A stretch of DNA of 40,020 nt, taken from the UHGV virus genome UHGV-0084069; one strand, given 5' to 3'. Origin of the DNA: a virus. Position 1 is the stretch's first letter. Each line of letters starts with the position of its first letter. This document shows, piece by piece, positions 1 through 30,896 of this stretch. The notes beneath the pieces are model-generated. The model did not search any database. It was not told where the DNA came from and saw nothing but the letters and a program-made list of their open reading frames with translations. A program made the translations under genes and the position numbers.

Positions 1-162
1 TATGTGGCGCTGAGTCGCTGGGAGCCACGGCTGACGCTGGATTCCATCACCATCAACAGCAATTTTGACGGTTCAATGGTGGTGGAGCTGACCGGGCGGC
101 GGAATAACGGTGTGCCTGTTTCCCTTTCCGTATCAACAGGAGCAGAGAATGGCAGTGATTGA
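1..162 (+). CDS. baseplate assembly protein W (GPW/gp25 family), C-terminal fragment; start lies left of the window
   Basis: Frame 1 is open from the window edge to TGA 160-162 (...LTLDSITINSNFDGSMVVELTGRRNNGVPVSLSVSTGAENGSD); the stop overlaps the ATG of the J-like gene, and gene order W-J-I-H-G matches P2. Confidence 0.5.
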   Translation, partial: YVALSRWEPRLTLDSITINSNFDGSMVVELTGRRNNGVPVSLSVSTGAENGSD

Positions 163-1057
163 CCTTTCGCAGTTACCTGCGCCGCAGATTGTGGATGTGC
201 CGGACTTTGAGACGCTGCTTGCCGAACGCAAGGCAGAATTTGTGGCGCTTCATCCGAAAGATGAGCAGGAAGCAGTGATGCGTACGCTGGAACTGGAATC
301 TGAACCCGTCACCAAATTGCTGCAGGAGAACGCTTACCGTGAGTTGCTTCTGCGCCAGCGCATTAACGAAGCCGCGCAGGCTGTGATGGTGGCTTACGCG
401 ATGGGCGGCGATCTTGACCATCTCGCTGCTAACTACAACGTGAAACGCCTGACGGTGACACCTGCTGATGATGACGCTGTACCGCCCGTTGCGGCTGTGA
501 TGGAAAGTGATGAAGCGTTACGCCTGCGTGTGCCTGCAGCCTTTGAAGGGCTTTCTGTTGCTGGGCCAACTGCCGCTTATGAGTTTCATGCACGAAGCGC
601 CGACGGTCGGGTGGCGGATGCCAGTGCAACCAGTCCGGCACCTGCAGAGGTGGTGCTTACGGTCCTAAGCCGTGAAGGCGACGGAACAGCAGAAAAAGAC
701 CTGCTGGATGTGGTGGAGAAAGCCCTGAACAGTGAGAACGTCCGCCCGGTGGCTGACCGTCTGACGGTTCGCAGCGCGGAAATCATCCCGTACCGCGTGG
801 AAGCCACCATTTTTCTCTATCCGGGGCCGGAAGCAGAGCCGGTAATGGCAGCGGCAAAAGCCAGCCTGCAGAGGTACATCGCCAGTCAGACGCGGCTTGG
901 TCGGGATATTCGCCGTAGCGCCATTTTTGCCGCGCTGCATGTTGAGGGTGTTCAGCGTGTGGAACTGGCTTCCCCGCTGGCGGATGTGGTCCTGAACAAA
1001 ACGCAGGCGGCATCATGTACGCAGTGGAGAGTGACCAACGGGGGTACGGATGAATAG
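149..1057 (+). CDS. baseplate assembly protein J (P2 gpJ-like)
   Basis: ORF 110..1057 with first ATG at 149 (MAVIDLSQLP...), 302 aa, the P2 gpJ size; sits between the W fragment and the I-like gene. Confidence 0.8.
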   Translation: MAVIDLSQLPAPQIVDVPDFETLLAERKAEFVALHPKDEQEAVMRTLELESEPVTKLLQENAYRELLLRQRINEAAQAVMVAYAMGGDLDHLAANYNVKRLTVTPADDDAVPPVAAVMESDEALRLRVPAAFEGLSVAGPTAAYEFHARSADGRVADASATSPAPAEVVLTVLSREGDGTAEKDLLDVVEKALNSENVRPVADRLTVRSAEIIPYRVEATIFLYPGPEAEPVMAAAKASLQRYIASQTRLGRDIRRSAIFAALHVEGVQRVELASPLADVVLNKTQAASCTQWRVTNGGTDE

Positions 1058-1655
1058 TCTGCTGCCACCGGGTTCAACGCCACTGGAGCGCCGACTGGCG
1101 CAAACCTGCAGCGGGATTTCTGATCTGCAGGTGCCGCTGCGTGACTTGTGGAATCCGGCAACCTGTCCGGTCAGTTTCCTGCCTTATCTCGCTTGGGCGT
1201 TCTCTGTGGATCGCTGGGACGAGGGCTGGACAGAAAGCGTCAAACGTCAGGTGGTGAAGGATGCTTTTTATATTCATCAGCATAAAGGAACCACCAGTGC
1301 CGTGCGGCGGGTGGTGGAGCCGTTCGGCTTTCTGATCCGCATTATTGAGTGGTGGCAGACCGGAGAGGCACCGGGCACGTTTCGCCTGGATATCGGCGTG
1401 CAGGACCAGGGCATCACTGAAGATACCTATCTGGAACTTGAGCGGCTGATAAGCGATGCCAAACCATGTAGCCGTCACATGATCGGCATGTCCATCAATC
1501 TGCAGACCAGCGGTCCGCATTGGGTGGGGGCCGCCAGCTATCTTGGCGAAGAAATCACGATCTATCCGTATATCAACGAAACAATTATTTCCGGCGGCAC
1601 CGCGCATGAAGGCGGGGCGGTCCATGTTATTGACACAATGAGAGTGAATCCATGA
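1050..1655 (+). CDS. phage tail protein I (P2 gpI-like baseplate protein)
   Basis: 201-aa ORF overlapping the J stop and the fibre start; position and size fit P2 gpI. Confidence 0.7.
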   Translation: MNSLLPPGSTPLERRLAQTCSGISDLQVPLRDLWNPATCPVSFLPYLAWAFSVDRWDEGWTESVKRQVVKDAFYIHQHKGTTSAVRRVVEPFGFLIRIIEWWQTGEAPGTFRLDIGVQDQGITEDTYLELERLISDAKPCSRHMIGMSINLQTSGPHWVGAASYLGEEITIYPYINETIISGGTAHEGGAVHVIDTMRVNP

Positions 1656-3172
1656 GCACAAAATTTTATACCCTGCTGACGGATATTGGCGCGGCGAAAC
1701 TTGCCAGCGCCGCCGCGCTCGGTGTGCCGCTAAAAATTACCCATATGGCGGTGGGCGATGGCGGCGGAGCATTGCCGACGCCGGACGCAAAGCAGACTGC
1801 ACTGGTAAATGAGAAACGCCGGGCTGCGCTGAATATGCTCTATATCGACCCGCAGAACAGCAGCCAGATTATTGCTGAACAGGTGATCCCTGAAAATGAG
1901 GGTGGTTGGTGGATACGTGAAGTGGGTCTGTTTGATGAGTCCGGGGCATTGATTGCCGTAGGCAACTGCCCGGAAAGCTATAAGCCGCAACTGGCTGAAG
2001 GCAGCGGGCGCACCCAGACCGTGCGCATGGTGTTGATTACCAGCAGCACGGACAATATCACCCTGAAAATCGACCCTGCCGTCGTGCTGGCAACCCGCAA
2101 GTATGTGGATGACAAGGTACTGGAGCTGAAGGTGTTCGTGGATGATAAGATGGCAAAACATCTTGCCGCACCGGACCCGCATTCACAGTATGCACCCAAA
2201 GAAAGCCCGACATTGACCGGAACACCCAAAGCGCCAACGCCAGCGGAGGGGAATAACACCACGCAGATTGCGACCACCGCGTTTGTTCAGGCGGCACTGA
2301 TGGCCCTTATTAATGGTGCGCCAGCCACACTGGATACGCTGAAAGAAATTGCCGCTGCCATTAATAATGACCCGAAATTCAGTACCACCATTAACAATGC
2401 GCTGGCACTGAAAGCGCCGCTGTCAAGTCCGGCACTCACCGGAACGCCAACAGCCCCCACTGCCGCACAGTCGGTTAACAATACACAGATTGCCACTACG
2501 GCTTTTGTGAAATCGGCGATTGCGGCAATGGTGGGTTCTGCACCTGCGGCACTGGATACACTGAACGAACTGGCGGCGGCGCTGGGGAATGACCCGAACT
2601 TTGCCACGACAATGCTTAATGCACTGGCAGGTAAACAACCGCTGGACAATACGCTGACTAATTTGAGTGGAAAGGATGTAGCTGGTCTTCTCGCATACCT
2701 TGGTTTGGGAGAAGGTTCGGCATTACCCGTTGGTGTGCCTGTTCCGTGGCCCTCAGCCACTCCGCCAACAGGCTGGCTAAAATGCAACGGAGCAGCTTTT
2801 TCTGCTGAAGAATACCCGGAACTGGCAAAGGCTTACCCGACAAATAAATTGCCTGATTTACGTGGTGAGTTTATTCGTGGCTGGGATGATGGGAGGGGCG
2901 TTGATAGCGGTCGAGGATTACTTTCGCTCCAAAGTAGTCAAAACTTGTCGCATTCTCACGATGATCTTGGGTCTATGGGGGGGAGAGCGGTTGGTGTCCC
3001 TGGAACAACATCCGTATATGCGAAGAAATATTATGGTTCAAATGAAGGATATCAGACTCGGCCAGCAGGTGGTTGGTCTGGCTCAGCATCAGGATTAACA
3101 TCATTAGAAAGTGGTGGGAATGAATCTCGTCCTCGCAACGTCGCATTTAACTACATCGTGAGGGCCGCATAA
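1652..3172 (+). CDS. tail fibre protein (P2 gpH-like): constant N-terminal part, two tandem shaft repeats, C-terminal tail-collar receptor-binding domain
   Basis: 506-aa ORF; repeated TQIATTAFV fibre motifs; LGLGE hinge at residues 350-354; C-terminal GWLKCNGAAFSAEEYPELAKAYP collar-like motif; followed by a tfa gene. Confidence 0.8.
   Translation: MSTKFYTLLTDIGAAKLASAAALGVPLKITHMAVGDGGGALPTPDAKQTALVNEKRRAALNMLYIDPQNSSQIIAEQVIPENEGGWWIREVGLFDESGALIAVGNCPESYKPQLAEGSGRTQTVRMVLITSSTDNITLKIDPAVVLATRKYVDDKVLELKVFVDDKMAKHLAAPDPHSQYAPKESPTLTGTPKAPTPAEGNNTTQIATTAFVQAALMALINGAPATLDTLKEIAAAINNDPKFSTTINNALALKAPLSSPALTGTPTAPTAAQSVNNTQIATTAFVKSAIAAMVGSAPAALDTLNELAAALGNDPNFATTMLNALAGKQPLDNTLTNLSGKDVAGLLAYLGLGEGSALPVGVPVPWPSATPPTGWLKCNGAAFSAEEYPELAKAYPTNKLPDLRGEFIRGWDDGRGVDSGRGLLSLQSSQNLSHSHDDLGSMGGRAVGVPGTTSVYAKKYYGSNEGYQTRPAGGWSGSASGLTSLESGGNESRPRNVAFNYIVRAA
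2207..2641 (+). repeat. in-frame tandem duplication (~72 codons x2) in the fibre shaft
   Basis: Protein repeats PTLTGTPKAPTPAEGNNTTQIATTAFVQAAL...LALKAPL and PALTGTPTAPTAAQSVNNTQIATTAFVKSAI...LAGKQPL. Confidence 0.6.
2688..2713. other. candidate 26-bp DNA-invertase crossover site (gix/hix/pix-like), left copy
   Basis: TTCTCGCATACC TT GGTTTGGGAGAA: two dyad half-sites around a 2-bp core; covers the LGLGE codons of the fibre gene; inverted copy at 4570-4595. Confidence 0.6.
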
Positions 3173-3774
3173 TGACGCAGGCAAAATTAAACAGTGAGCT
3201 TATTGCCACGGAAGCCGGTGATATTACTGTGTTTAACTACGATGGTGAAACACGGGAGTATATTTCTGCATCAACTGAATATCTTGCTGTGGGTGTCGGT
3301 ATCCCTGCATATTCCTGTTTAGATGCTCCTGGCACCTACAAAGCTGGTTATGCAATCTGCCGTTCTGCAGATTTTAACTCATGGGAATATGTACCAGACC
3401 ATCGCGGTGAAATTGTCTTTAGCACCGAAACAGGAGAATCAAAAGAAATCACAGCTCCGGGTGATTACCCTGAAAATACAACCACTATCGCCCCGTTAAC
3501 GCCATACGATAAATGGGATGGTGAGAAATGGGTGACCGATACTGAGGCACAGCATAGCGCCGCAGTAGAAGCGGCAGAAGCACAGCGCCAGTCACTGATT
3601 GATGCAGCAATGGCTTCCATCAGTCTGATTCAGCTGAAATTGCAGGCCGCACGTAAACTGACGCAGGCAGAAACAACCAGACTTAACGCCGTGCTGGATT
3701 ACATTGACGCGGTGACGGCAACAGATACCAGCACCGCGCCGGATGTCATCTGGCCTGAACTGCCGGAGGCGTAG
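3172..3774 (+). CDS. tail fibre assembly protein (Tfa, P2 gpG / Mu U family)
   Basis: 200-aa ORF with ATG overlapping the fibre stop (TAATG); conserved Tfa C-terminus ...LDYIDAVTATDTSTAPDVIWPELPEA. Confidence 0.8.
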   Translation: MTQAKLNSELIATEAGDITVFNYDGETREYISASTEYLAVGVGIPAYSCLDAPGTYKAGYAICRSADFNSWEYVPDHRGEIVFSTETGESKEITAPGDYPENTTTIAPLTPYDKWDGEKWVTDTEAQHSAAVEAAEAQRQSLIDAAMASISLIQLKLQAARKLTQAETTRLNAVLDYIDAVTATDTSTAPDVIWPELPEA

Positions 3775-4198
3775 GCCATTCAATATCTGGCGCACTGGAG
3801 GTATCAACCAGTTCCAGTGCGTCCAGATAATCCAGCCACAAATTATATTGCGCCAGTTCATCATCTTTCAGACGACCAATAGCGGCTTTACCGGGCCATT
3901 GCTTACTGTTCATGTATTCGTTGGCCTGGTTAATTAGTAGCTGTCTTTCTGATTCAGTAATTTCAATAAGTTCTTCATGCGTGGGTGGAGGAATATCTGC
4001 CCACGCAGGCAGCCCATCATCTCCGGCAATACGGATTTTTCCTTGTGGCGGTTCAGCCATAAACTCACTGATAATATTTTGATTTACTTCCTTAGCGTCT
4101 GATAAATCCCATCCCTCTGATTTATATTTATCAATCATATCCACAGGGAAAAAAGCATTATGCCTTGCGCTATAAACATATTCGTTCATATAAATCAC
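3746..4198 (-). CDS. tail fibre assembly protein (second Tfa, convergent with the first)
   Basis: 150-aa ORF ending ...LDYLDALELVDTSSAPDIEWPTPPAVQAR; its 3' end overlaps the + strand tfa by 29 bp. Confidence 0.8.
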   Translation of the reverse strand: MIYMNEYVYSARHNAFFPVDMIDKYKSEGWDLSDAKEVNQNIISEFMAEPPQGKIRIAGDDGLPAWADIPPPTHEELIEITESERQLLINQANEYMNSKQWPGKAAIGRLKDDELAQYNLWLDYLDALELVDTSSAPDIEWPTPPAVQAR

Positions 4199-4209
4199 CC
4201 TGAATAAAA

Positions 4210-4872
4210 TTACTCACCAACAGCCCACCAACTGTAATTCATCGATACTGTGGAACTGGTTGATGCAGTTCTGTAAGCGGAATTAAAACCGGTTAATGTT
4301 GGGCCTTCTGCGGTCATCACGAATCCCCGCCCAGCACCTAAAGGCGCACCACCATCACCAGAATGAGTAAGCATGGCGCAGTCCACTTTTTTAGGAAAAG
4401 GGATGCTGAATGTAATTCTCATTGTTTGCGTCGATAATGTCGGCGTAACCGCACCACGACCATATTGCAGGATTTTCCCGTTGGGTAATTTCATCCATCC
4501 ATCACCATTGGCAAAAGAGGCCATGTCCGGTATCTGATTTTCCCCTGTCCCCACATCCCGTTTTGCCGCTTCTCCCAAACCAAGGTTTTCGAGAGCCGTT
4601 TTCACCGTGCCATCCGATTTGATATCGCCAAACGGATTCTTGCGGCTTAACAGCAGCGCACGAAGCGCGGTAAGCAACTGGTCGTGCCGCCCCTTCTCCA
4701 GGCTGGCACCGGATGCCTCCACCACGCTGCAGAGTTCTTCCTGCAACATATCAAAGTAGTCATCATCCAGATCGGTGGCAGGCGTGCCAGTCTGGGGGTT
4801 ACCACGGGTAAAACCGTTCTTACCCGCGCCGAACTTATCCTTCTGCGCGGTTTTCGTGTCTATACGATGCAT
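4210..4872 (-). CDS. short tail fibre protein (e14 StfP / Mu S-like): short constant N-terminus plus exchangeable C-terminal domain
   Basis: 220-aa ORF starting 4 nt after the gp48-like gene stop; LGLGE hinge at residues 97-101 coincides with the right crossover site. Confidence 0.75.
4570..4595. other. candidate 26-bp DNA-invertase crossover site (gix/hix/pix-like), right copy, inverted relative to 2688-2713
   Basis: TTCTCCCAAACC AA GGTTTTCGAGAG; resembles hixL TTCTTGAAAACCAAGGTTTTTGATAA (recalled); shares an 18-bp perfect inverted identity CTTCTCCCAAACCAAGGT with the left site. Confidence 0.6.
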
Positions 4873-4875
4873 GGA

Positions 4876-5460
4876 TTACTCCGGATATTTAAAAATTACG
4901 TAGGTATGCGACGGGCAGAGTTTGTTAAGCACACACTCGACAACGGTGTCACCCCAGATACGCAGTGCGGAATCACAGGGATCGCCACATGTCATCCAGG
5001 TGGTGTTGGTGGTGGTTGGCATGTTGACCTGCCAGTAATACCGCCATTCCGGCGCATTCACCGCGTCAGTACAGGCCGATGAGCCGGTGAAGGTGCTTTT
5101 GTCGTATCTCGTGATGGTGGCATCTGGCCTGCCCAGGGCAGCAAGCTGTGCAAGATAAAAATCCTCGTAGATGCCGCCCGCCAGGTTAACCTTCGCATCC
5201 AGCCGTTGCTGACGCTGGCGAAGGGGCTGCGTTCCCGCCGGAATACATTCATCCGGCAGACCGCACAGACGCTCCCAGCGGTTTATCAGTTCAGTGGTGG
5301 TGCGCGGATCCAGCTCCCGCATCAGGGCATCCGCACGCTGATGAACGCGGGTTAATGACGGTGCCGCACCGGCAATCGCCGGATCGCTGGCTGACCACGC
5401 CGGACCGGGTGGCAACAGTGCCGACAACAGACGGATGTAATCATCGTTTGTCACGTCCAT
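4876..5460 (-). CDS. tail protein, Mu gp48 / YmfQ-like (DUF2313 family)
   Basis: 194-aa ORF immediately upstream of the fibre gene; position matches Mu gp48 and e14 YmfQ. Confidence 0.65.
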
Positions 5461-6509
5461 GAAATCGTCCCCAGAACCGCCAGTTCATTTTTCGCAATGG
5501 AGATATTGTCTGCCGGTGCAAGCAACTGATGGCTATATTCCCCGTTCGCACCGGAAATCGCCTCACTGATACGCGATACCTTCAGTTCTCCCTGCGGATA
5601 ACCATCACGCAGAAGAAACGAACGCAACTCCGCGGTGATGGCGGCTCGTATTTCTGGTGTGTCCGGCGTCACGCGGATATGAAAATCCACCGTATGTGCC
5701 ACCGGCCTGAATACATACAAATCAGAGCCTGCCACCGGGGCCAGTGGCACGATATGTTGTCTTGCTGCCGTTTCCGTTGATTCTTCCGGAATGGGATTAA
5801 TCAGGTCACTGCTGGCAATCATCACACCGACAGTTCCCGTTCCCATCCAGTGACGGTATGTCCATGCGCGGGTAATGCCGGGCACTTCTTTAGCCCAGAC
5901 GACATAGTCCCCGTCAGCCCCGCCCTGAGGCGTCCAGTAATACCGCTCAATGACGCGGGCGCGCCACGTTTCCAGCTCTTCAGTATCAAATCCGCCTGTC
6001 AGGGTGTCAGCCACACCGGAAGACGGCAGACCATTCACCGGCGTGACCAGGATTAATGCCGTACCGTCGTCAGCGTTACCGACCGCACCTGCACTTGAGC
6101 AGGCGATCGGCACGCGCAGGACACCACCGGAGCTGGTTGCATCGGCAGTTGCCGTGTACTGAACCAGGTCATCGCGCTGAATAACACTCCCGGCGGTCAC
6201 CTTCAGGCCATCGCTGACACCTTCCCAGCGCATATACCCGCTGGCAGCCGTGGCCCCCTTGCGCGGACACCGTTTCATCGCAGCATGTCGCGCCAGCCAG
6301 AACTCATCGCACAGGTCAGGCAGCATGTTCATTGCCAGATAATCGATGTAACCGTAAACCGTATGCAGCGCCGCCGCATACACCTTTGCCCGCACGTCTT
6401 CATCCATGCGCCGGAGCGTGTCGCTGACGTCCAGCCTGGCGAATAAATCGTTACGGAGCATACTGATATTTTCTGCCAGCGTCGGGCGCTGAAATTCACT
6501 GTCCGCCAT
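5451..6509 (-). CDS. baseplate J-like protein (Mu gp47-like)
   Basis: 352-aa ORF in the Mu-type baseplate block, overlapping its neighbours. Confidence 0.7.
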
Positions 6510-6924
6510 GCGTTATCGCACTCCACAGATCATCAAAAGAAATCATTACCGGTCCGTCACGACGCCACAGAGTGATACTGTTACCCAGTTCATTAATCCC
6601 GGTGCGGCGGATATCCAGATCAATACGGGACACCACGCCGTCATCAATCATCCATTGCAGGCATTCGCGGATATACCCCCTTACCGTCTGCACCAGCTGA
6701 TTGGTCAGTTTGCTGCGCTGAAGCAGCCACAGTCGGGAGCCGTAACAGTCATTCTGTACCGCAGGCCAGGTATCCCCCCACCATCCCATCGGGACGTCGG
6801 CGTTGTCATCAGGCTCCGCCCGCCGCCAGGTAAACAGGGAAATCACCACGGCGCGGGTCAGCGGATCCAGCGGTGCGCTGGCGCAGGTGCGTTTACCGTT
6901 CACCGTCAGCCACAGTTCCATCAT
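6496..6924 (-). CDS. baseplate protein, Mu gp46 / GPW-gp25-like
   Basis: 142-aa ORF between the V-like and J-like genes. Confidence 0.6.
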   Translation of the reverse strand: MMELWLTVNGKRTCASAPLDPLTRAVVISLFTWRRAEPDDNADVPMGWWGDTWPAVQNDCYGSRLWLLQRSKLTNQLVQTVRGYIRECLQWMIDDGVVSRIDLDIRRTGINELGNSITLWRRDGPVMISFDDLWSAITHGGQ

Positions 6925-7469
6925 GCCTCCATCGCTTTATCAGGTTTGTCGGTGTTACTGCCATGACCGTTCTCTCTGTGACGATGCCCGTTATAGGCAA
7001 GCCGCATCGCTGACATGGTGGTACCGCCGGAGTCGCACAGGTCTTTCACCTGTCCGGTCACTTCCAGGTCCATTTCAAAACGTGCTCTGGGCGCATTGCG
7101 AAACGTGATCGTTTTACCTGCACCGTCCACCACGATCCCCTCCCGGGTCAGCGTCACAGACTGCCCCTGATCGTCATAGACAGCCACCTCACCCGTCTGC
7201 AGCCCTTTCAGGCGGTAGCGCCGGTCCGACACCGTAACAACCACCGCATGAGAACGGTCGCCATCCGGAAACAACACCACCGCTTCCGCACCGCTGTTTG
7301 CCCTTGCGGTAAAACCGTAGGGTTCAAGATGTTCAACCCCGGCTTTGGGTTCACCGGCAATCAGGGACACATCCACGGTCTGACATTTCGTGGCGGCACT
7401 GATGCTTTTCACCACTGCCCGCCCAATCAGGCCGAGAAGTTGTCGCTGCATGGCTTCAATCGTCCTCAT
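6921..7469 (-). CDS. baseplate assembly protein V / spike (Mu gp45-like)
   Basis: 182-aa ORF, position-conserved in the Mu tail module. Confidence 0.6.
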   Translation of the reverse strand: MRTIEAMQRQLLGLIGRAVVKSISAATKCQTVDVSLIAGEPKAGVEHLEPYGFTARANSGAEAVVLFPDGDRSHAVVVTVSDRRYRLKGLQTGEVAVYDDQGQSVTLTREGIVVDGAGKTITFRNAPRARFEMDLEVTGQVKDLCDSGGTTMSAMRLAYNGHRHRENGHGSNTDKPDKAMEA

Positions 7470-8548
7470 CAGAACGGGTCCTCCTGTACTCTGGCTTTTT
7501 TCTTTTTCCGCGCGCCGGGGGCTTCGGGTTCAGGCAGATAAGCATCAGGTGGGCCGACACGGATTTCCGTCAGGGTGCCATTCTGGTCCTGAGTAAACGT
7601 GACTTCCGAGACAAGCAGTTCGGTATTGTCGAAACCACAGACCGGATCGAAGACAATCACCCGCTGGTTGGGCTGCCACAGCGTACCGTTACCCTGTCGC
7701 CAGCCCTGCACCACATAGGTGGTTTCATCCGTCCGCGCCGCCCGTTGTCGGGCTTCAAAGTCAGCACGCGCAATACAGCCTGCCCCCGTAGCCTGCCCTG
7801 TCTGCCTGATATACATCGGACGGTAACGGGCAATAAATGCGTCCTCTGTGCGGGCCCGCAGCGCAGTTGTGGTGGCCTCACCGAAATCATCGTCGTTTCC
7901 GGCACGCTGCCCCGCCACCTGGTAAACAGAAAACCGCTCCCGGATACTCTTCTCCGTATCGCAGGAAAGGATGTTTTCCCCGAGTACCAGCGCGGTATGT
8001 GCCCGCGTTGAGCCAATACCGCCAATCACCAGCCTGCCGTGCGGGTCGTCATAAGCCAGCGCCTGCTGCTGACCGAGTATTTTGTTAATCACCTCGATCA
8101 CCGTTTCACCGTGATCAGGCTGGACATCAGGAATAACACCCGACGGCGCACCGCTGTTCACCACCTCAATGCCGAAGGGCGCAGCAAGCGCCTGCGCAAT
8201 CTGTACCAGTGATCGTCCGTTAAACTGTGTCGGTTCAGCTGCACAATCAATCAGGTCAGCGGTCAGACTGCGTCCGGCAATACCGGTGCTGACCGAACGG
8301 GCATCGTAACGAACGGGCGTCGCCTCCACCCAGCCGGTGATCACCAGCTCATCACCAATCAGCACCTCCACTTTTGAACCGTTTTTAATGCGCGGCTGAA
8401 GCGTGGTGATACCCTCATCACCCGGCCACTGGCGGGTGATCTCCACACTGAAATCCCGCGCCAGTCGTTCAACACCGGCACCGATGCGCACCGATGTCCA
8501 GCCATTCCACTCCCGGCCATTTACCCGTAGCGTGACATTGTCGTTCAT
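7469..8548 (-). CDS. baseplate hub protein (Mu gp44 / P-like)
   Basis: 359-aa ORF following the DNA-circularisation-like gene. Confidence 0.55.
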   Translation of the reverse strand: MNDNVTLRVNGREWNGWTSVRIGAGVERLARDFSVEITRQWPGDEGITTLQPRIKNGSKVEVLIGDELVITGWVEATPVRYDARSVSTGIAGRSLTADLIDCAAEPTQFNGRSLVQIAQALAAPFGIEVVNSGAPSGVIPDVQPDHGETVIEVINKILGQQQALAYDDPHGRLVIGGIGSTRAHTALVLGENILSCDTEKSIRERFSVYQVAGQRAGNDDDFGEATTTALRARTEDAFIARYRPMYIRQTGQATGAGCIARADFEARQRAARTDETTYVVQGWRQGNGTLWQPNQRVIVFDPVCGFDNTELLVSEVTFTQDQNGTLTEIRVGPPDAYLPEPEAPGARKKKKARVQEDPF

Positions 8549-9915
8549 TGCACTGGCACCTTCAGAGGGATCACCGGCACAAAGCCGGGATGCGTAATGG
8601 CATTACGCCGGATAATGTCCGCATCACGCGCCGCGTTATCAAACCAGGTCGCCGCCAGCACCAGCGCGGGTAAAACCTCATCCGGTGTGCGCTGAATGAT
8701 CCGTGCAGACTGTTCAAGGCGCGTGTTGATATCCGCATTCAGATCTGCTTTCACCCGGCGCAGTGCCAGAAACAGCGCATCACTGGTTGTACGGGACAAC
8801 TCCTTATCAATTGCCGTATTCAGTGTGTCGCGAATGTCAGTCAGTTCTTCCCACGTTGGCAGGTCAACCGTGTTTTTCACCGCCGGTGCATTGTTCAGTG
8901 CCGGATGCGTGACGGAAGGCCAGCCAGTGCTCTGCGCAGGTGTTGTTGACTGCCCCACTGCGGCATTCTGCATCACCGCGGAAGTTGTTGGCGCAGGCAA
9001 TCGGGTGACGGCATACGCCGCTTCGCTGATTGCGGTCGTACGAAGGGTACTGGCAACCTCGTTACGCTGATGCGTCGCCGTGGCGGTGGTTTTACTGTCC
9101 GTTTTCCAGACGCCGCGCGGTTGCAGATCGCTGCCGAGGCTGACACCGGAAAGCGTTTTGATCATGGTGACCAGGTCGCTGGCGTTACCATAAAGGCGTT
9201 TCCCGGTACGCCACATTTTCTGCACCTGCTCAACGAAATTTTTGCCTGACGATGGTGGCGGCAGAAGTACCGAGATATCCCCCTGCAACAGCCTGGCGGC
9301 ATCCGATACGGCAGAATCCACCACTTTCATCGCATCAGAAACATACCCAAGCATTGTGCTGGCATTACCGACGACGTCGTTCTGCACAAAATCTGCCACG
9401 CCATCGATACTGAAACCACTGAAGCTGTCACTGATGCAGTCATCCAGTGCAGAACAGGATGACATCAGCGTCTGCGCCGTCGCCGCACCTGAAGTGGGGT
9501 AAGAGAGTTCTCCCGCTTCGACAAACTTCAGGTCAAAGCGGACAATACGCCCTTCACTCTTCGATGTGCTGACCCGAACTTCCCCGTCAACACAGACTTT
9601 CAGCTCACCGTAAGTCGGATGGACAAGCGTGCCGGGACCGGGTTTATTCAGCGCGTCAATCAGGCGATCGCGCTGGTCAAAGCAGTCATCTCCCACCACA
9701 TAAGCTGTGATGGACGGGCGGAAAGTGATTTTCCCCAGGTCTTCGGTATAGGGTTTGTCGCGGTTCGGGTATTCGTGCGTTTCCACACGACGACCGGTTC
9801 CCGCACTTTCTTCTTCAACCTTAAACGGCACACCGCGAAATGACGCGTCCTGAAGTCTGTCTTTCCACGTCATATAAACTCCGTACATAAAAAATCCCAC
9901 CGGAGTGGGACTCAT
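8545..9915 (-). CDS. Mu gp43 (N)-like DNA circularisation / tail protein
   Basis: 456-aa ORF directly downstream of the tape measure gene. Confidence 0.55.
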   Translation of the reverse strand: MSPTPVGFFMYGVYMTWKDRLQDASFRGVPFKVEEESAGTGRRVETHEYPNRDKPYTEDLGKITFRPSITAYVVGDDCFDQRDRLIDALNKPGPGTLVHPTYGELKVCVDGEVRVSTSKSEGRIVRFDLKFVEAGELSYPTSGAATAQTLMSSCSALDDCISDSFSGFSIDGVADFVQNDVVGNASTMLGYVSDAMKVVDSAVSDAARLLQGDISVLLPPPSSGKNFVEQVQKMWRTGKRLYGNASDLVTMIKTLSGVSLGSDLQPRGVWKTDSKTTATATHQRNEVASTLRTTAISEAAYAVTRLPAPTTSAVMQNAAVGQSTTPAQSTGWPSVTHPALNNAPAVKNTVDLPTWEELTDIRDTLNTAIDKELSRTTSDALFLALRRVKADLNADINTRLEQSARIIQRTPDEVLPALVLAATWFDNAARDADIIRRNAITHPGFVPVIPLKVPVQ

Positions 9916-9933
9916 TAACAGATTAATTTTTCA

Positions 9934-11769
9934 TTACCTGCCAAAGCGCGTATAGCCAACATCATGGCTGACATCAAAACCGCTGGATCGCGTTTCCATA
10001 ACCCGCATACCCGGAGGCGAATTCATAAAAGAGACCTTGATCTCACCATCAACTTTTGGCGCAGAAGCTTTGTTAATCATGAAGGGATTCGGGCCTGTGG
10101 CACCGGAGGCGTTGTTTGACTGAGCCGGATCTACCGCCGGATAAGGTGTGTATCCCCGCGCCGGTATTCCCGTCCCATAAGCATCATAAGCACCCGCGCC
10201 CCACTGCGCAGAGTTAATGGCATCGACCGTGTCACCGGAACTGTCGGTAAACCACTCAATAATTGGCTTCAGCTTGTCCCACATATCCTGAAACCACTTA
10301 ACAACCGGCCCCCAGTTATTGATCACCATCCCCAGCGGCGACCAGGCAAAAACTTTCTTAAGGAGTTCCCAGCCAGCCTCAAAATAAGGACCAATGGTTT
10401 CCCAGAGTTTCTTAAAATAAGGTCCGACAACATCCCAGTTAGTGATAATTAATCCCGCAGCCAGGGCTATCGCCGTCGCAATCATGCCAATCGGCGTCAT
10501 CGACATGATCCTGCTGACAATACTGATGGCACCGCCAACGCCCATCAATCCCAGTTTCAGAATCGCAAGACCGGCAGCAAGCCCGACGACGCCGCGAATA
10601 ACCCGGGGATTTTCATCCGCAAACTTCGTGAATTTTTCCCCCAACTCCCCCAGCCATTGCGTGATATTTTTAGCGTCACCAGAAAATGCGCCGCCAATAG
10701 CTGCAAGACCGTTAGTTGCGGTCCCCGTCATTGCCTCCCACAGGTTGGACAGCGTACCAAGCTGGGCCTGAACACGTTTATTCAGGCTGGCCTGTTTATT
10801 CATCTTCTGCTGGATCTGATCGTAGCCATCCTTTCCTTTATCGATCAGAGCATTGACCACCTGAAGGGTTTCGGCATCATCACCAAATATTGCCTTAAGT
10901 ACACCGGTTCGCTTAACGTCGGTCAGTTTTCGCAGCTTTGCCAGTTGCCTGAACATGTTATCAAGACCGCCAAAACTCCCTTTGCCATCAGTAAAATCGA
11001 GCTGTACCCCGAGTTTCTGGCGGGCCATGATTTTATTGACGTCCCTGATTTTCTTAACGCTTAATCCGGACTGGATAACTTTTCGCAGGGCATTACCTGC
11101 CGACTCCCCGTTCATCCCCATCTGATCCATCATGACACTGATGGGGGCAAGACTCTGTGCAGCCTGAAGACCGTCCTTATTCACCATCTTCAGAACAGAG
11201 CTGGTTTTAGTGAAGAATGACAGCATGTTGGTGTCGTCAACGCCCAGATAAAACGCCTTCTGAATTGTGTCGAACAGCCCCATCATGTCTTCTGAGGCCG
11301 TTCCGGTAGCATCCTGCATCTTTGCGGCAAACTCGGCAGCCGCTTCCGGTGTTTTTTTCAGTTGTACCGCAAGATAAGCTGTCGCTTTACCCACACCACC
11401 CAGAATGTTTTCTGCCGGGATCCCCTGACGCACCAGCATCTGCATCATGTTCTGGAAATCAGCCGTTGTACCGGGTAGCTGGTTACCCAGGCCAATAGCC
11501 AGTTTATTGATGTCCTGAAAGCTCTTTCCAACCTCGCCGTTCGCATCCATCATGGCGACTTTCAGCCCGGTAGCGGCGTTTTCCTGATCGGCATAAGATT
11601 TCAGGGAAAGCGTCAGCCCCGCTGCCAGTCCGCCACCAAGCGCCAGCCCACCCTGTGACGCCTCTTCCGCCTGGCGTTTAAATCCCCGGATTTTCTTTTG
11701 CATTTTCGACAGCGCGGGAGAAAGCCTGTCGACACCGGTGATCAACGCCTTAAGCTCAAATTCAGCCAT
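9934..11769 (-). CDS. tail tape measure protein
   Basis: 611-aa ORF with a Gly/Ala-rich hydrophobic central region and coiled-coil N-terminus; preceded by the chaperone frameshift pair. Confidence 0.75.
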   Translation of the reverse strand: MAEFELKALITGVDRLSPALSKMQKKIRGFKRQAEEASQGGLALGGGLAAGLTLSLKSYADQENAATGLKVAMMDANGEVGKSFQDINKLAIGLGNQLPGTTADFQNMMQMLVRQGIPAENILGGVGKATAYLAVQLKKTPEAAAEFAAKMQDATGTASEDMMGLFDTIQKAFYLGVDDTNMLSFFTKTSSVLKMVNKDGLQAAQSLAPISVMMDQMGMNGESAGNALRKVIQSGLSVKKIRDVNKIMARQKLGVQLDFTDGKGSFGGLDNMFRQLAKLRKLTDVKRTGVLKAIFGDDAETLQVVNALIDKGKDGYDQIQQKMNKQASLNKRVQAQLGTLSNLWEAMTGTATNGLAAIGGAFSGDAKNITQWLGELGEKFTKFADENPRVIRGVVGLAAGLAILKLGLMGVGGAISIVSRIMSMTPIGMIATAIALAAGLIITNWDVVGPYFKKLWETIGPYFEAGWELLKKVFAWSPLGMVINNWGPVVKWFQDMWDKLKPIIEWFTDSSGDTVDAINSAQWGAGAYDAYGTGIPARGYTPYPAVDPAQSNNASGATGPNPFMINKASAPKVDGEIKVSFMNSPPGMRVMETRSSGFDVSHDVGYTRFGR

Positions 11770-11944
11770 GTGTGCGTTTCTCCTGCTCTATCCTGTTTGC
11801 CTGACTGACCAGCAAGGGAATTTCACTGATCGGCATATTCAGCAATTCGAAGGGATTAATGCGCCAGTAGCTGGCGCAGTCAAAGAAGCGATCAGTGAGG
11901 TATTCAGCCGTCAGGCCTGGAGGAAAAAACCAGCCACAAGCCAC
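11762..11944 (-). CDS. -1 frame extension of the tail assembly chaperone (frameshift product C-terminus)
   Basis: ORF in the -1 frame overlapping the chaperone 3' end across slippery TTTTTTC; ends at the tape measure start. Confidence 0.45.
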   Translation of the reverse strand: MACGWFFPPGLTAEYLTDRFFDCASYWRINPFELLNMPISEIPLLVSQANRIEQEKRTHG

Positions 11945-12180
11945 GCCGCTGCATTCAGGTCTGCCGGAGACATCTGGTCGACAGAGCTTTGCGGCACTTT
12001 CGCCAGCCGCACAATGTATTTCGACACCACATGCGCCAGAAGTCTGACGGACTCATCCTGATTCATCTGGTAGGGATACCCCAGCTCGCGAACATCCTTC
12101 CCGGTGGGTTCATCAAACTCCAGTACGGAGAGTGTCTCACCATGAGCGATAATCGGTTTCTTTAACTCAAGCTCTTTCAT
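11911..12180 (-). CDS. tail assembly chaperone (Mu gp41 / lambda G-like)
   Basis: 89-aa ORF between the tube and tape measure genes; ends ...WLVAGFFLQA across a slippery heptamer. Confidence 0.55.
   Translation of the reverse strand: MKELELKKPIIAHGETLSVLEFDEPTGKDVRELGYPYQMNQDESVRLLAHVVSKYIVRLAKVPQSSVDQMSPADLNAAAWLVAGFFLQA
11923..11929 (-). other. candidate -1 programmed ribosomal frameshift slippery heptamer (T TTT TTC on the coding strand)
   Basis: + strand GAAAAAA, i.e. G-GTT-TTT-TCC in the chaperone frame, 5 codons before its stop. Confidence 0.45.
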
Positions 12181-12536
12181 TACTGGTAATCCCCTTCTTC
12201 ACCGTGGAACTCAAGATCAACCGTCCCTTCTTCGGCATTATGGTTCGCTTCTCCGTGCAGCCAGGCGGACGACAATACATAGACCTGACCGTTCGCCAGC
12301 TCGGCAGTGATGGTCATCTCATCAGACGAGGTGATTTTGTTCACCGGAAAATTCTTCGGCACCTTGAAGGTCCCTTTGACATAAGGCGCACGGTGAGTTT
12401 CCTTGCGGTCCACTGAACCGTCCAGGCCGATGATGTCATCATTGACCGTCCTGTTCATGGGCACCTCAATGCCGCCGGTCAGCGATAGCTGCTGACCGTC
12501 AATTTTGAAATAACAGGTTCCCCCGATACGGGCCAT
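12180..12536 (-). CDS. contractile tail tube protein (Mu gpM-like)
   Basis: 118-aa ORF immediately after the sheath gene. Confidence 0.7.
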   Translation of the reverse strand: MARIGGTCYFKIDGQQLSLTGGIEVPMNRTVNDDIIGLDGSVDRKETHRAPYVKGTFKVPKNFPVNKITSSDEMTITAELANGQVYVLSSAWLHGEANHNAEEGTVDLEFHGEEGDYQ

Positions 12537-14032
12537 TATGCAGACTCCTCTGAATACTGAAGACGGAACTGGTTAACCACGGCAAAAACACGCAACTGGT
12601 TAACATAGTCAGGCGGGAACAGCGTGTTCAGGCGGTTCGGATCGCTGGCATCACGCTCCACAACCAGGTACTGCTTAAACAGTTCGTAGTTTTCCACGAT
12701 CCCCGCACGCTCAAGCTGACGGTAGGTTGCCAGCAGTTCCCCTTTGATTACCGCCGGGGTGACAATCGCCTGACCGGGACCAAAGCGGGTACCGTCGCTG
12801 GCAAGCTTGTGACGCCCGTACTTACTGGTAATGACGGATTTCAGTTTGCGCAGTACATACGCGCTGGTATGCAGCGTCTCGCTGTCGAGGTAGCTGTTAT
12901 CCGCAACACCGTAAGCATTTTTCCTGTACGTGGTGACATCACGCTGAATGCGCAGCACCCCGCTTTCGACATACGCCGTTGCCACGCCATGAGACAGCAG
13001 GGTCTGCTGCTCGGTCATCGTGAACCGTTTCCCCTTCGGCGCAGGCAACATACCTACCAGCTCACCGGTCTGCGTGGGACGTGCCGGATCGTTGCGGATA
13101 AACACCGCTGCGCGGGCGGTACGGCTTGCCGCCAGCTCGTCGGCAGGCGTCTGGGTCTCTTTTTCGTACCCCGCCAGGGTGATGTGCTGCTGGTTAAACT
13201 GGTCACCTGCGTTCACCAGTTCTGACAGTGTGCCGGTCTTTGCCGTATACACATGACCATACAACTGACGCGCATAGCTCCAGCGACCGCTGGTATCGTT
13301 CATCTCGGTCACCAGCGTGTTAACGGAGGCCGTGTCGTTGAACGGCAGACCGATATAATCAAACGGCTCATCCGCCATTGCAGCCACCGCGCCGGTGAGA
13401 ACCGGAGCGCCCGTTCCGGCGGTCCCCGTCGCCACGGCAATCTGTACGCCCGCTGGCAGCACTTCGCCCCCACCGAAGCCGTAGTAATTGAGGCTGACAG
13501 GAATTTCATTCCCGCAAAGCCCCTTATGACGCGCGGTCAGCGTGACAACACCAGCCGAAGATGAAGCTGTAAACGGCAGAGTCGGAACGGCATTGATGGC
13601 ATCTTTGATACTGCTGGCAATCGTCGTGACGTTATCGCCGTTGGTCACCGGAGCCTGCACGCGGGTACGTCCCACATAGACATTCACCGTGCCGCTTTCG
13701 GTTGCTTCCCCGGTCACCGTCAGCGTAACCGTTGCCGCCGCGCCTGTGGCTTCCGGAACGGCAATCACATACAGCTCACCAAACGGGTCGGTCTGGCGAT
13801 AAGCCTCGACCATACGCGCCAGCTGACTTCCCGCACCACAAATCTGGCGTGCATAGTCTGCCGACGGCATCAGCACCAGACTGTTGGCAACAATCTCTGC
13901 ACCGTTATTGGCATGACCAATCAGCAGCGATGCTCCGCTGTCCTGTGCAGTATTCGCCGCCTGGTTATCCATTTCCGCATAAAACAGCGGAACCAGCGTA
14001 TTCGACGGAATGGTGTTAAAGCTTATCGTCAT
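12536..14032 (-). CDS. contractile tail sheath protein (Mu gpL-like)
   Basis: 498-aa ORF (MTISFNTIPS...) followed by the tube gene. Confidence 0.8.
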   Translation of the reverse strand: MTISFNTIPSNTLVPLFYAEMDNQAANTAQDSGASLLIGHANNGAEIVANSLVLMPSADYARQICGAGSQLARMVEAYRQTDPFGELYVIAVPEATGAAATVTLTVTGEATESGTVNVYVGRTRVQAPVTNGDNVTTIASSIKDAINAVPTLPFTASSSAGVVTLTARHKGLCGNEIPVSLNYYGFGGGEVLPAGVQIAVATGTAGTGAPVLTGAVAAMADEPFDYIGLPFNDTASVNTLVTEMNDTSGRWSYARQLYGHVYTAKTGTLSELVNAGDQFNQQHITLAGYEKETQTPADELAASRTARAAVFIRNDPARPTQTGELVGMLPAPKGKRFTMTEQQTLLSHGVATAYVESGVLRIQRDVTTYRKNAYGVADNSYLDSETLHTSAYVLRKLKSVITSKYGRHKLASDGTRFGPGQAIVTPAVIKGELLATYRQLERAGIVENYELFKQYLVVERDASDPNRLNTLFPPDYVNQLRVFAVVNQFRLQYSEESA

Positions 14033-24220: not shown

Positions 24221-24791
24221 AACCCCACCTCGCAGACAAAGCGGGTGTAAATTGAGGGAATACTACGAAACGTAACAGACTCGGAGTCAGTGAATAACTC
24301 AGGTATTGGGTTATCAGCTAATATCGAGACTCAAAAAATGGAAAAACCCGCTCGACGGCGGGTTTAAGCTGTGTGACGAAGTAACCACTCTTAACAGCAT
24401 AACCAATTTTTTACGTACGTAAACCACTAAATGATATTTGCGAGAATGCTACCGAGTATTGAAAACACCACTACAAATACATAAGCAAATCTCAACAAAT
24501 AACCAACAAATAATTTCCAGCGTTATTTTTAGCCGATTTAAATTGAACCTTCAAATTATAGAGCACTTATAAATAACAGCCATTAATATAAATTGGCTAA
24601 TAGATTTATTTTTATTCAGCCAAGAGCCATGAATAGGATTCGATAGAAAAAGTTCAGATAAAAATAGAGATCTACTTCACAAATCAAATGAGAAACCAAA
24701 ACTTACATCTTGAAATAATCACATTGATTAGATGAATATTTATCGCGCAGTGACATCATTTTTTAATAATAGTTCAAAAAAAGGGCTCACG

Positions 24792-25874
24792 ATGAAAAAA
24801 TTAACAGTGGCAATTTCTGCTGTAGCTGCATCAGTACTGATGGCGATGTCTGCTCAGGCAGCTGAAATTTATAATAAAGACAGTAACAAGCTGGATCTGT
24901 ACGGGAAAGTTAATGCTAAGCACTACTTCTCCTCTAATGATGCAGATGATGGTGATACTACTTATGCCCGTCTTGGCTTCAAAGGTGAAACCCAAATCAA
25001 CGATCAACTGACTGGTTTCGGTCAGTGGGAATATGAATTCAAAGGCAACCGCGCTGAATCTCAAGGTTCCTCCAAAGATAAAACCCGTCTTGCCTTCGCT
25101 GGCCTGAAATTCGGTGACTACGGCTCCATCGATTATGGCCGTAACTACGGTGTAGCATACGATATTGGTGCATGGACCGACGTTCTGCCAGAATTCGGTG
25201 GCGATACCTGGACCCAAACAGATGTATTCATGACTGGTCGCACCACAGGTGTTGCAACTTATCGTAACAATGACTTCTTTGGTCTGGTTGATGGTCTGAA
25301 CTTTGCTGCTCAGTATCAGGGTAAAAATGACCGCACTGACGTAACTGAAGCTAATGGTGATGGTTTCGGTTTCTCCACTACTTATGAGTATGAAGGATTC
25401 GGTGTAGGTGCAACCTATGCTAAATCTGACCGCACTAATAATCAGGTTATCTACGGTAACAACAGCCTGAATGCATCTGGTCAAAATGCTGAAGTATGGG
25501 CAGCTGGTCTGAAATATGATGCGAACAACATCTATCTGGCTACCACCTATTCTGAAACCCAGAACATGACTGTTTTTGGTAATAACCATATTGCCAACAA
25601 AGCACAAAACTTCGAAGTAGTTGCACAATATCAGTTCGACTTCGGTCTGCGTCCGTCCGTTGCTTACCTGCAATCTAAAGGAAAAGACTTGGGTGCGTGG
25701 GGTGATCAGGACCTGGTTGAATATATTGATGTAGGTGCAACCTATTACTTCAACAAAAATATGTCCACTTTTGTTGATTACAAAATCAACCTGATTGATA
25801 AGAGCGATTTCACGAAAGCATCTGGCGTTGCTACCGATGATATCGTTGCTGTAGGTATGGTTTACCAGTTCTAA
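24792..25874 (+). CDS. nmpC: outer-membrane general porin, OmpC/NmpC (Lc) family, prophage-encoded
   Basis: Signal peptide [23 protein letters not shown] then [16 protein letters not shown]...; C-terminal ...VGMVYQF; lies between Q and the lysis genes on the opposite strand, as nmpC does in DLP12. Confidence 0.85.
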
Positions 25875-26062: not shown

Positions 26063-26446
26063 TTAATTAGAGTTATTAACAACGATATCCATCTCTAACC
26101 GGATATCTAATGCCATTAACATCCCTTCAATTATACCCTCAGCCTTCTGTAACCTTTTCCCGATATAACCATCAGAGCAGCAATGCTTACCTGCCAGTGA
26201 CATGAATGTCATACCGACTACATAATAATCTACTAATAAATCGTGCAAATCGCTGTTGTTCTTTTTCAGACGGGCCATGCACCCGCAAATGATCATCGCG
26301 TCATCGTCACAACATTGCGGGCGAGATTTTACTTTTGAAGGAATTAATCCCTTAAAACCGGCGGCAATGGACGACCAGGTCACATCTTCATGATTATTAG
26401 CCGCCCACGCTCCCCAACGCTCAAGAACCATCTGAATATCACGCAT
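26063..26446 (-). CDS. late antiterminator Q (phage 21/82 type)
   Basis: [24 protein letters not shown]...; Cys-rich zinc-binding region; located before the lysis cassette. Confidence 0.8.
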
Positions 26447-26531
26447 CAACTTACTCCACAAAAATCAGACCAGAACGCCAATTACAAGCAAAAATCAATA
26501 AAACAGTATTAGTTGATTGTTATCTCTGGCT

Positions 26532-30025: not shown

Positions 30026-30031
30026 AATGAT

Positions 30032-30538: not shown

Positions 30539-30896
30539 TTAGTACTCCTTACAGTATCTACTTTAATATCATTTTACCGTTTAATATTACATCTTGCACT
30601 AAAAACAAGTAGTCTACAGTATGCCACCCGCAGCCTCTTTATGATTACTTATTGTCCATATTCCTGAAATTTCCCTTTGGTGCAATTGCATACCATTCCA
30701 GCCTCTTCCTCCAGTGCCACCATCCAGTATGTCACTGCATACCTACCGTTGATTATGCACATCAAGTTCTGTTCACTCTACAGCGCCACTACATTTTTCA
30801 TAACACTCTTAACAGGCATATCATATGTATGAGCAACGTCTTAGCAACTGAATGTACTATTTGTCACAATGTAATGAATAATTGCCTCTTTGTCCG

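Follow-up and report, generated by a model that had tools for sequence, protein, structure and literature searches.

A single invertible tail-fibre cassette flanked by P2-type and SfV-type prophage arms in a metagenome contig

Invertible fibre loci and the cassette of the window

The closest described system is the P invertible segment of prophage e14 in E. coli K-12 (pinE, stfP/ycfK, tfaP, tfaE, stfE), which is related to the Mu G, P1 C and p15B Min segments. It carries inverted sites of 26 bp, two alternative fibre C-termini with convergent chaperone genes, and a constant 5′ part of the fibre gene that lies outside the segment. Similar invertible fibre loci occur in P2-like prophages (Peduoviridae) such as those of UMNK88, MS 57-2 and EPEC E2348/69. 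Inversion of loci of this kind has been documented in E. coli cultures, where it was seen for e14-type segments and was also reported for P2-like prophages (PMC4272514). Native e14/SfV-like and P2-like prophages have the same order, i.e. site, C1, tfa, tfa, C2, site and invertase. In a normal prophage the cassette thus adjoins the constant fibre part at one end and the invertase gene at the opposite end.

The window, the whole stretch of 40,020 nucleotides that was analysed, comprises the first 40 kb of NODE_277_length_46268_cov_6.64 (ENA ERZ772937), a 46-kb short-read metagenome contig with a k-mer coverage of 6.6. Position 1 of the window is the start of this contig. Gene identities were assigned from open reading frames and Pfam matches. 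Positions 2688-4595 form a single 1.9-kb invertible tail-fibre cassette of the serine-invertase (Pin/Gin/Cin/Min) type, and its crossover sites belong to the same sequence family as those of the e14 P segment. The left 26-bp site (2688-2713, + strand; TTCTCGCATACC TT GGTTTGGGAGAA) has its core at 2700-2701 and an outer half of the P2 H type, and is identical to the in-gene site of two native P2-like prophages. The right 26-bp site (4570-4595, + strand; TTCTCCCAAACC AA GGTTTTCGAGAG) has its core at 4582-4583 and an outer half of the StfP type, and is identical to the in-gene site of four native e14/SfV-like prophages. The two sites are inverted and have the same inner half (TTCTCCCAAACC); read outwards from the cassette interior, each core is AA. 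Taken by itself, the 12-mer core motif was only mildly enriched (five matches against 1.26 expected, a number reached in 3 of 100 shuffles); the case for the sites is made by the full 26-bp identity to native sites, not by this motif.

The cassette interior (2714-4569) carries C1 and a tfaE-type gene in one direction and a tfaP-type gene and C2 in the other. It contains two alternative fibre C-termini, each with its own chaperone and placed tail to tail, and its bounding sites lie within fibre genes. On the + strand, a P2 H-type tail fibre gene (1652-3172; Pfam Phage_tail_fib and Collar) consists of a constant part (1652-2699) joined at the crossover site to the variable C-terminus C1 (2702-3172), and is followed by the tfaE-type fibre assembly chaperone for C1 (3172-3774; Caudo_TAP). 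On the − strand, an StfP-type short fibre gene (4210-4872; Gp53-like_C) consists of a constant part (4596-4872) joined to the variable C-terminus C2 (4210-4569), and the tfaP-type chaperone for C2 (Caudo_TAP) occupies 3746-4189/4198 in the gene call, with 147 amino acids from the ATG at 4189. RefSeq gives the homologues of this region the names ymfQ, stfP, tfaE and pinE.

The two tfa genes are convergent and have 29 bp in common (3746-3774), as originally predicted. This overlap had been taken for the point at which two independent fibre/tfa sets met, but the sets are two halves of one cassette, with its ends fused to the constant parts of H and StfP. The overlap itself is the conserved centre of the cassette and not a junction, because the same overlap was found inside every native cassette examined, in P2-like and e14-like prophages alike. 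A simulated flip joined the constant part of H to C2 (473 aa) and the constant part of StfP to C1 (253 aa); both fusions stayed open, so that either C-terminus is in frame with the constant part, and the latter protein was identical to a native one (L023). Both flip states also occur in the native cassette of the same prophage lineage, among relatives that are 99.9% identical: L022 has the orientation of the window, and L021, L023, L024, L025 and L031 are flipped. The invertible nature of the segment, i.e. its 26-bp sites, the missing invertase and the two flip states of the relatives, had escaped the original prediction.

Hybrid flanks of the cassette

The left arm carries P2-type genes on the + strand. 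A 3′ fragment of W (gpW/gp25; 1-162), called in the source contig and truncated by its start, is collinear with native P2-like GPW/gp25, and is followed by the baseplate gene J (149-1057; Baseplate_J) and the tail gene I (1050-1655; Tail_P2_I, E=7e-55). Positions 1-2714 are 100% identical to four native P2-like prophages, whose identity ends at the left site. The exact J protein was found in many native P2-like prophages, while the exact 506-aa H protein and the exact tfaE-type protein were found in the source contig only. A complete P2-type tail module (V W J I H G, then FI FII E T U D) is not contained in the window; the P2-type genes are the W fragment, J, I, H and tfa, after which a Mu-type baseplate follows on the opposite strand. 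Two complete baseplate and tail-fibre modules had been claimed; two prophage arms are indeed present, but V and most of W of the P2 arm lie beyond the contig start.

The right arm begins with a Mu-type baseplate set on the − strand (4876-9915), identified by Pfam matches and 99.95-99.99% identical to native relatives. It comprises gp48/YmfQ (4876-5460), gp47 (5451-6509), gp46 (6496-6921), gp45 (6921-7469), gp44/GpP (7469-8548) and a DNA circulation protein (8545-9915). The remainder of an SfV-like prophage, a type that combines a lambdoid early region with an HK97-type head and a contractile tail of the Mu type, extends over 9934-40020, with the tape measure gene (9934-11769, − strand), tube, sheath, head, terminase, lysis, Q, replication, cI and recombination genes, and an integrase at its right-hand end (38857-40020). 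The structural region is collinear with, and over ~17 kb 97-98% identical to, Shigella phages SfII, SfI, SfIV and SfV. The integrase is of the thrW type, and its exact protein adjoins proA-proB-phoE in all 10 contexts among the matches listed. The placement of the genes in two strand sets, the assignment of the Mu-type set to a lambdoid prophage and the derivation of the arms from two different prophages were thus correctly foreseen. The short fibre showed zero differences from its native form, and the exact protein was also present in an unrelated metagenome scaffold.

Both ends of the cassette abut the constant part of a fibre gene, that of P2-type H at the left end and that of e14/SfV-type StfP at the right end. 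No homologue of an invertase was detected in the 40-kb window by tblastn with native Pin, and the cassette therefore lacks the adjacent invertase of other invertible segments; in all native relatives a resolvase-family gene of 184 or 188 aa adjoins the cassette, and in native P2-like prophages the invertase, sheath and tube genes come after it. Homology to cassettes in the P2 context stopped at 4588, and homology to cassettes in the e14 context began at 2697-2700. Since both ends are fibre constant parts and an invertase is missing, the sequence crosses from a P2-like into an SfV-like prophage within the cassette. The cassette is common to both prophage families, and a fusion of P2 H and StfP through one cassette is what an exchange between two prophages at their cassettes should produce. 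The P2 lineage normally lies beside ybjL and the SfV-like prophage at thrW/proA.

Only the superficial gene order in the window would agree with a plain abutment of two complete prophages at the tfa/tfa overlap or with a single, conserved genome of a hybrid phage, and we consider both extremely improbable. Abutment is contradicted by the native overlap described above, and it would give two cassettes and two invertases instead of one cassette and no invertase. A single conserved phage genome, which had been named as an observation that would overturn the idea of two prophages, does not agree with the surveys: no phage record contained both arms, and a P2::e14-type join was found in only one of 5426 complete E. 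coli genomes (FDAARGOS_1287, NZ_CP070071.1). An e14::e14-type join was found in none of these 5426 genomes, nor was a thrW-ybjL hybrid, though both prophage lineages are common.

Allele switch within the cassette and origin of the join

Compared with five native relatives, the window showed 25 differences within 2752-3802, none within 3803-4588 and just two in the next 7.9 kb. The left 1.1 kb of the cassette is thus an allele other than the native SfV-type one, whereas the right 0.8 kb matches the latter without a difference. The switch between the prophages therefore most likely lies between 3803 and 4595, which from this comparison would be the interval of a crossover or of a false join. The tfaE-type chaperone differed from the native SfV-type allele by 18 nt and 4 aa, and the variable tip C1 was identical to that allele. 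The mismatches across the cassette resulted in merely five amino acid changes, indicating that they are natural alleles and not sequencing errors. A 47-mer of window-specific alleles (2750-2796) was present in 15 IMG/VR contigs, where it lay in P2, stfP or invertase surroundings and next to different cassette tips, indicating a circulating allele. The best cassette copies in complete E. coli genomes were only 91-95% identical and occurred in both contexts, and were hence uninformative for assigning the cassette to one prophage. MS 57-2 was rejected as a parent: its P2 arm matches the window at 99.96% identity, but it has a different cassette and does not rank among the 60 complete genomes nearest to the SfV-type arm, of which the best was 98.9% identical.

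The join must be put down either to an assembly error or to a rare inversion that involved two prophages. An assembly error had been named in the original prediction as something that would refute it, and it is a serious possibility. We regard it as most likely, though with only moderate confidence, that a short-read assembler left a repeat shared by the two prophages along the wrong path, an in silico origin suggested by the context. The assembler would have left the P2-like copy inside the shared cassette and continued into the SfV-like prophage. In agreement with this, the join crosses a repeat common to both prophage families in a low-coverage contig that has just 2.7 kb of P2 DNA ahead of the cassette at its very end. 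Other short-read contigs of the same prophage likewise break in or at the cassette, and a second hybrid join (L057) occurred among only 15 IMG/VR contigs, while hybrid joins are very rare in the complete genomes surveyed. That an assembler joined the two prophages across the shared cassette is, on these grounds, the origin to which we give moderate credence. An assembler working from the usual parents, however, could not have made the junction of the H constant part with C1. Just ~15 bp (2700-2714) are common to the SfV-type cassette and the P2 relatives whose arms are identical, so a P2-type H in physical continuity with this type of cassette must exist in the sample. This combination was not seen in any other place. 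Also, the orientation of the join is that of a real inversion between the ybjL and thrW prophages, judged in part by the MG1655 gene orientations around these loci.

FDAARGOS_1287, a complete genome, shows the same kind of fusion. As in the window, a P2 arm is followed by one cassette with two in-gene sites and then by an e14-type arm. Unlike in the window, the two prophages lie in tandem beside ssrA and the inversion spans only 47 kb, with its reciprocal junction (invertase, cassette, pinE) visible at that distance, giving the rearranged flanks of an inversion between prophages. Such structures do therefore form in cells, which argues against an assembly error. With ~96% identity to the window, another cassette allele and another integrase, FDAARGOS_1287 is an independent case. 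An inversion endpoint formed by recombination between fibre genes had been proposed for the window; FDAARGOS_1287 matches this proposal exactly, but a junction at the tfa/tfa overlap, as had been assumed, does not fit, the overlap being native. A degraded P2-like prophage, one of the four with arms identical to the window (L036), was rejected as a further cassette-linked inversion, and shows a local rearrangement of tail genes.

A genuine inversion endpoint, formed by RecA-type homologous recombination between cassette copies at ybjL and thrW, is possible but rather unlikely. Such an event would flip ~0.6 Mb of one replichore, from thrW to ybjL, and would split both prophages. The allele switch sits within the cassette, as a homologous crossover predicts, and the geometry suits an inversion and not a deletion, in part according to the MG1655 map. 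FDAARGOS_1287 is a real inversion of this kind, although 47 kb across and between tandem prophages, and in E. coli O157 recombination between prophages is an established cause of inversions (Iguchi et al. 2006, cited in PMC13492144). Against this origin, the surveyed genomes lacked a thrW-ybjL hybrid, the sequence would look identical to a false join through the same repeat, and its source is a low-coverage short-read metagenome contig. In addition, a 0.6-Mb inversion within one replichore is expected to be counter-selected.

A site-specific origin, in which a Pin-family invertase recombined crossover sites of the two prophages and the whole cassette derives from one of them, is improbable. 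The exchange would have involved either the H site and the pin-proximal site, or the StfP site and the site beside the P2 invertase, and the window would then represent an intermediate of a cassette swap between co-resident phages. In its favour, the match to P2 relatives whose arms are 100% identical breaks off precisely at the inner boundary of the left site (2714), and SfV-type homology begins at the core (2697-2700). ZH49 has in P2 surroundings the same cassette allele that H1827/12 has in e14 surroundings, with homology stopping at the site cores, indicating that cassettes move between the two families at these sites. The uniqueness of the exact H protein to the source contig and the identity of the C1 tip to the native SfV-type allele are likewise consistent with it. 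The 25 differences from the native SfV-type cassette, however, all lie on the P2 side, while the adjoining 8.7 kb are nearly identical. Exchange at the left site would thus require an additional gene conversion event, and exchange at the right site would require 786 bp to be identical by coincidence. Invertases of this family also depend on sites in cis, on an enhancer and on a synapse of defined topology, and action across ~0.6 Mb is expected to be very inefficient. A literature search for invertase-mediated inversion between two prophages gave nothing specific. That a phage invertase really joined sites of unrelated prophages ~0.6 Mb apart, swapping tips and toggling an inversion, is more doubtful still. 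If it were true, one flip would swap the receptor-binding tips of P2-type and SfV-type tails, and the enzyme could also switch a large chromosomal inversion back and forth; cassettes would move between co-resident phages in two successive steps.

Comparison with known systems

If the join was made by an assembler, it is a warning that invertible fibre cassettes in unrelated prophages are repeats at which short-read assemblies can fuse two phages into a seeming hybrid. If it is real, it is a further case of prophages serving as substrates of chromosomal inversion, with both prophages split and immobilised, and it hints at how near-identical fibre cassettes, with boundaries exactly at the crossover sites, reach P2-like and e14/SfV-like phages. 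Current understanding of these systems is unchanged under either reading.

The window differs from the e14 P segment in that a P2-type H, with its in-gene site and constant part, takes the place of the invertase-proximal site and pin, so that both ends of the segment sit inside fibre genes, and no invertase or enhancer lies nearby. With the P2-like fibre loci it shares the J-I-H arm, 100% identical over 2714 bp to several native prophages, the same in-gene site and the same cassette type. Native P2-like loci continue into the invertase, sheath FI and tube FII, whereas in the window the StfP constant part comes next, together with a Mu-type baseplate encoded on the opposite strand. Should the join be real, it would also resemble the large inversions of E. 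coli O157:H7 (Iguchi et al. 2006, Gene 372:199), for which homologous regions of co-resident prophages supply the inverted repeats. The join in the window would likewise have used a repeat carried by each of two prophages. In O157:H7 the repeats are reportedly long stretches common to lambdoid prophages, unlike the 1.9-kb invertible fibre cassette common to two unrelated phage families seen here. Neither an assembly error nor a rare inversion is a new kind of system, and the cassette itself is of an ordinary, already known type.

Gene content of the two arms

The ORF list and the Pfam scans bore out the gene map of the original prediction. On the + strand, a 3′ fragment of P2 W (1-162) was followed by J (149-1057), I (1050-1655), an H-type fibre gene with tail-collar domains (1652-3172) and a Caudo_TAP chaperone gene (tfa; 3172-3774). 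The − strand carried a second chaperone gene (tfa; 3746-4189), which overlaps the first by 29 bp (3746-3774) as had been predicted, a short fibre gene with a Gp53-like C-terminus (4210-4872) and, beyond it, Mu gp48/YmfQ, gp47, gp46, gp45 and gp44, then the genes of a DNA circulation protein (to 9915) and the tape measure. This set runs on into a lambdoid prophage that is complete and has a contractile tail of the Mu type. Its structural region is 97-98% identical to Shigella phages SfII, SfI, SfIV and SfV, and the prophage ends with an integrase gene (38857-40020). The exact integrase protein adjoined proA-proB-phoE, i.e. the thrW site, in all ten of the contexts listed.

A full-length OmpC/NmpC-type porin gene (24732-25874, + strand; Porin_1, E=4e-153) was located in a low-GC island (GC 0.39-0.44) between the Q antiterminator gene (26063-26461) and the lysis genes, on the opposite strand; it resembles the porin morons carried by other lambdoid prophages. 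A very AT-rich island (28500-30600, GC 0.32-0.35) contained two ORFs on the − strand (29240-30025 and 30032-30538) with no significant Pfam or PADLOC match, the match to MCRA being sub-threshold only; both proteins also occurred in the related prophages L011, L014 and L020. Two near-palindromic AAACCWTGGTTG motifs (33484-33495 and 33531-33542), picked up solely through their resemblance to the core of the crossover sites described below, lie at the start of a cI-like repressor gene (33489-34244) and are possibly operator sites.

The fibre cassette and its hybrid flanks

When 5426 complete E. coli genomes were searched by megablast, thousands matched only from about 2697 rightwards. In the typical e14/SfV-type prophage of RX24, the order in the left-to-right direction of the window was pinE, short fibre C-terminal fragment, tfaE, convergent tfa, Gp53-like fibre and ymfQ, and in the typical P2-like prophages of UMNK88 and MS 57-2 it was H, tfa, convergent tfa, Gp53-like fragment, recombinase, sheath and tube. 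These gene orders indicate that both families natively share one device, a segment of about 1.9 kb between the constant part of a fibre gene and a serine invertase gene, comprising two alternative fibre C-termini, each with its chaperone, arranged tail to tail. The convergent tfa genes had been proposed as the meeting point of two tail modules; since the same 29-bp overlap was internal to every native (single-prophage) copy examined, it is not the junction.

The cassette is bounded by 26-bp crossover sites with a constant inner half and core (TTCTCCCAAACC AA) and an outer half varying with the flank: GGTATGCGAGAA at the P2 H flank, GGTTTTCGAGAG at the StfP flank, CGTTTAAGAAAA at the P2 invertase flank and CGTTTATGAAAA at the pin flank. 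These correspond to the pix sites known from the e14 P segment and to sites of the gix/cix/hix family. Both flip states were present among close relatives of the SfV-type prophage, and the e14 and P2-like loci flip in culture (PMC4272514). The pin genes beside the native cassettes of RX24 (L002, 7701-7937) and PSS-16 (L021, 12315-12716 and 14161-14865) are annotated as pseudogenes, and the fused fibre gene of PSS-16 also has an internal stop; both cassettes are probably locked in a single orientation. In another compared locus, L045, the conserved fibre C-terminus start was found twice on the same strand, 1 kb apart (12431-12477 and 13426-13472), with a third, weaker copy nearby. This points to an inversion region made up of several segments, as in Min or shufflon systems.

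In the window, the outer half is H-type at the left site (2688-2713) and StfP-type at the right site (4570-4595). One cassette is thus joined to two constant fibre parts; both invertase-proximal sites are absent, and no invertase homologue was found in the whole 40-kb window. Both fusions remained open after a simulated flip, giving H-N::C2 (473 aa) and StfP-N::C1 (253 aa), the latter identical to a native protein. Such a structure is expected when the cassettes of two prophages undergo reciprocal exchange.

The position of the switch was narrowed by comparison with native loci. P2-like prophages encoding an identical J protein (L032, L036, L040 and L041) were 100% identical to positions 1-2714, lost this identity precisely where the left site ends on its inner side, and carried cassettes of other types. 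Two same-J prophages are degraded: in L036 (9900-14909) part of the tail gene block is inverted after the cassette, and L033 (8507-9990) is without everything from H to T. Native SfV-type arms (L022-L025, L027, L030 and L031) were 99.95-99.99% identical over 4569-12460. Their cassettes, seen in full in L022-L025 and L031, were all of one allele, from which the window differed at 25 internal positions (six at 2752-2836, one each at 3363 and 3495, seventeen at 3537-3690 and one at 3802); zero differences followed over 3803-4588, and the 7.9 kb after that had just two. As the 25 differences cause just five amino-acid changes and some of these alleles also occur in other cassettes, they are natural alleles. 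On the simplest reading of these sequences, the left 1.1 kb would come from a different copy of the cassette, one continuous with the P2 arm, and the change to the SfV-type copy would lie somewhere in 3803-4595.

Origin of the join

The window covers the first 40,020 bp of ENA ERZ772937 NODE_277_length_46268_cov_6.64, the name of which suggests a SPAdes short-read metagenome assembly, and the P2 part makes up only the first 2.7 kb of this contig. The assembler may have joined two prophages in silico through the cassette, which we consider somewhat favoured. Other short-read contigs of the same prophage (L027-L030) ended inside or at the cassette, marking it as an assembly trouble spot, and hybrids were almost absent in complete genomes and present in short-read-derived sets, which counts for an assembler join.

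When the two flanks only were used as query, the P2::e14-type arrangement was found in a single one of the 5426 complete genomes, FDAARGOS_1287, and no phage record with both arms was found; this speaks against one conserved phage genome, a case allowed for in the original prediction. In FDAARGOS_1287, a P2-like prophage, from its integrase to the H constant part, is followed by one cassette and a reversed e14-type prophage that extends as far as its own integrase. Roughly 3 kb beyond lie reversed P2 ogr, D, U, T, E, tube, sheath and invertase; next comes a second cassette, which has the two invertase-type sites at its ends, and after it pinE and ssrA. The arrangement amounts to an inversion of 47 kb with the cassettes of two tandem prophages as its endpoints. 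The two prophages (L001, L010; NZ_CP070071.1, 61-135 kb) lie between glaH and ssrA, and the reciprocal cassette has both invertase genes at its sides. An analogous flank test for a cassette shared by two e14-type arms gave none in the 5426 genomes. One such case, L057, was present among 15 IMG/VR contigs. In L057 (UViG_2617271072_000006, 5857-12446), two e14/SfV-type baseplate arms with 97.8% mutual identity meet head-on at one cassette, which has an StfP-type site at either end (8262-8287 and 10017-10042); this second hybrid may be either real or an assembly product.

FDAARGOS_1287 shows that such inversions happen, which favours a real event at the window locus. The H-N::C1 junction must, moreover, be physically present in the sample, because the stretch common to the usual parents is only about 15 bp long at this point and the H protein of the window had no other occurrence in the collection. 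The geometry also fits: the P2 lineage adjoins ybjL and the SfV-type prophage is at thrW, and the fibre genes of prophages at these sites presumably point the same way, judging by MG1655 gene orientations, so that the join seen here is what cassette exchange would leave behind on inverting, rather than deleting, about 0.6 Mb. We nevertheless regard a homologous inversion between the two cassettes as rather unlikely, an invertase-mediated exchange as quite improbable and any other origin as equally so. An assembler join is still somewhat preferred.

Possible cassette movement and known inversion systems

One cassette allele was found both in a P2-like prophage (L043, ZH49) and in an e14-type prophage (L044, H1827/12). 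Compared with L001 (22688-24540), these showed about 8-12 differences in 1.85 kb, and homology stopped at the crossover-site cores, indicating that the cassette acts as a module moving between phage families. The pattern is consistent with site-specific movement between unrelated phages, and the sharing of an allele by P2 and e14 contexts may merit its own study.

In all properties tested but one, the window cassette conforms to the family of the e14 P-segment, Mu G, P1 C and p15B Min. The exception is the adjacent invertase, a feature of that family that is absent here. In E. coli, prophage-prophage recombination is an established cause of inversions (Iguchi et al. 2006, cited in PMC13492144), and fibre cassettes are reported to be swapped among co-resident prophages in ST131 isolates (bioRxiv 10.1101/2022.05.07.487787). 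Everything at the window locus is within known kinds.
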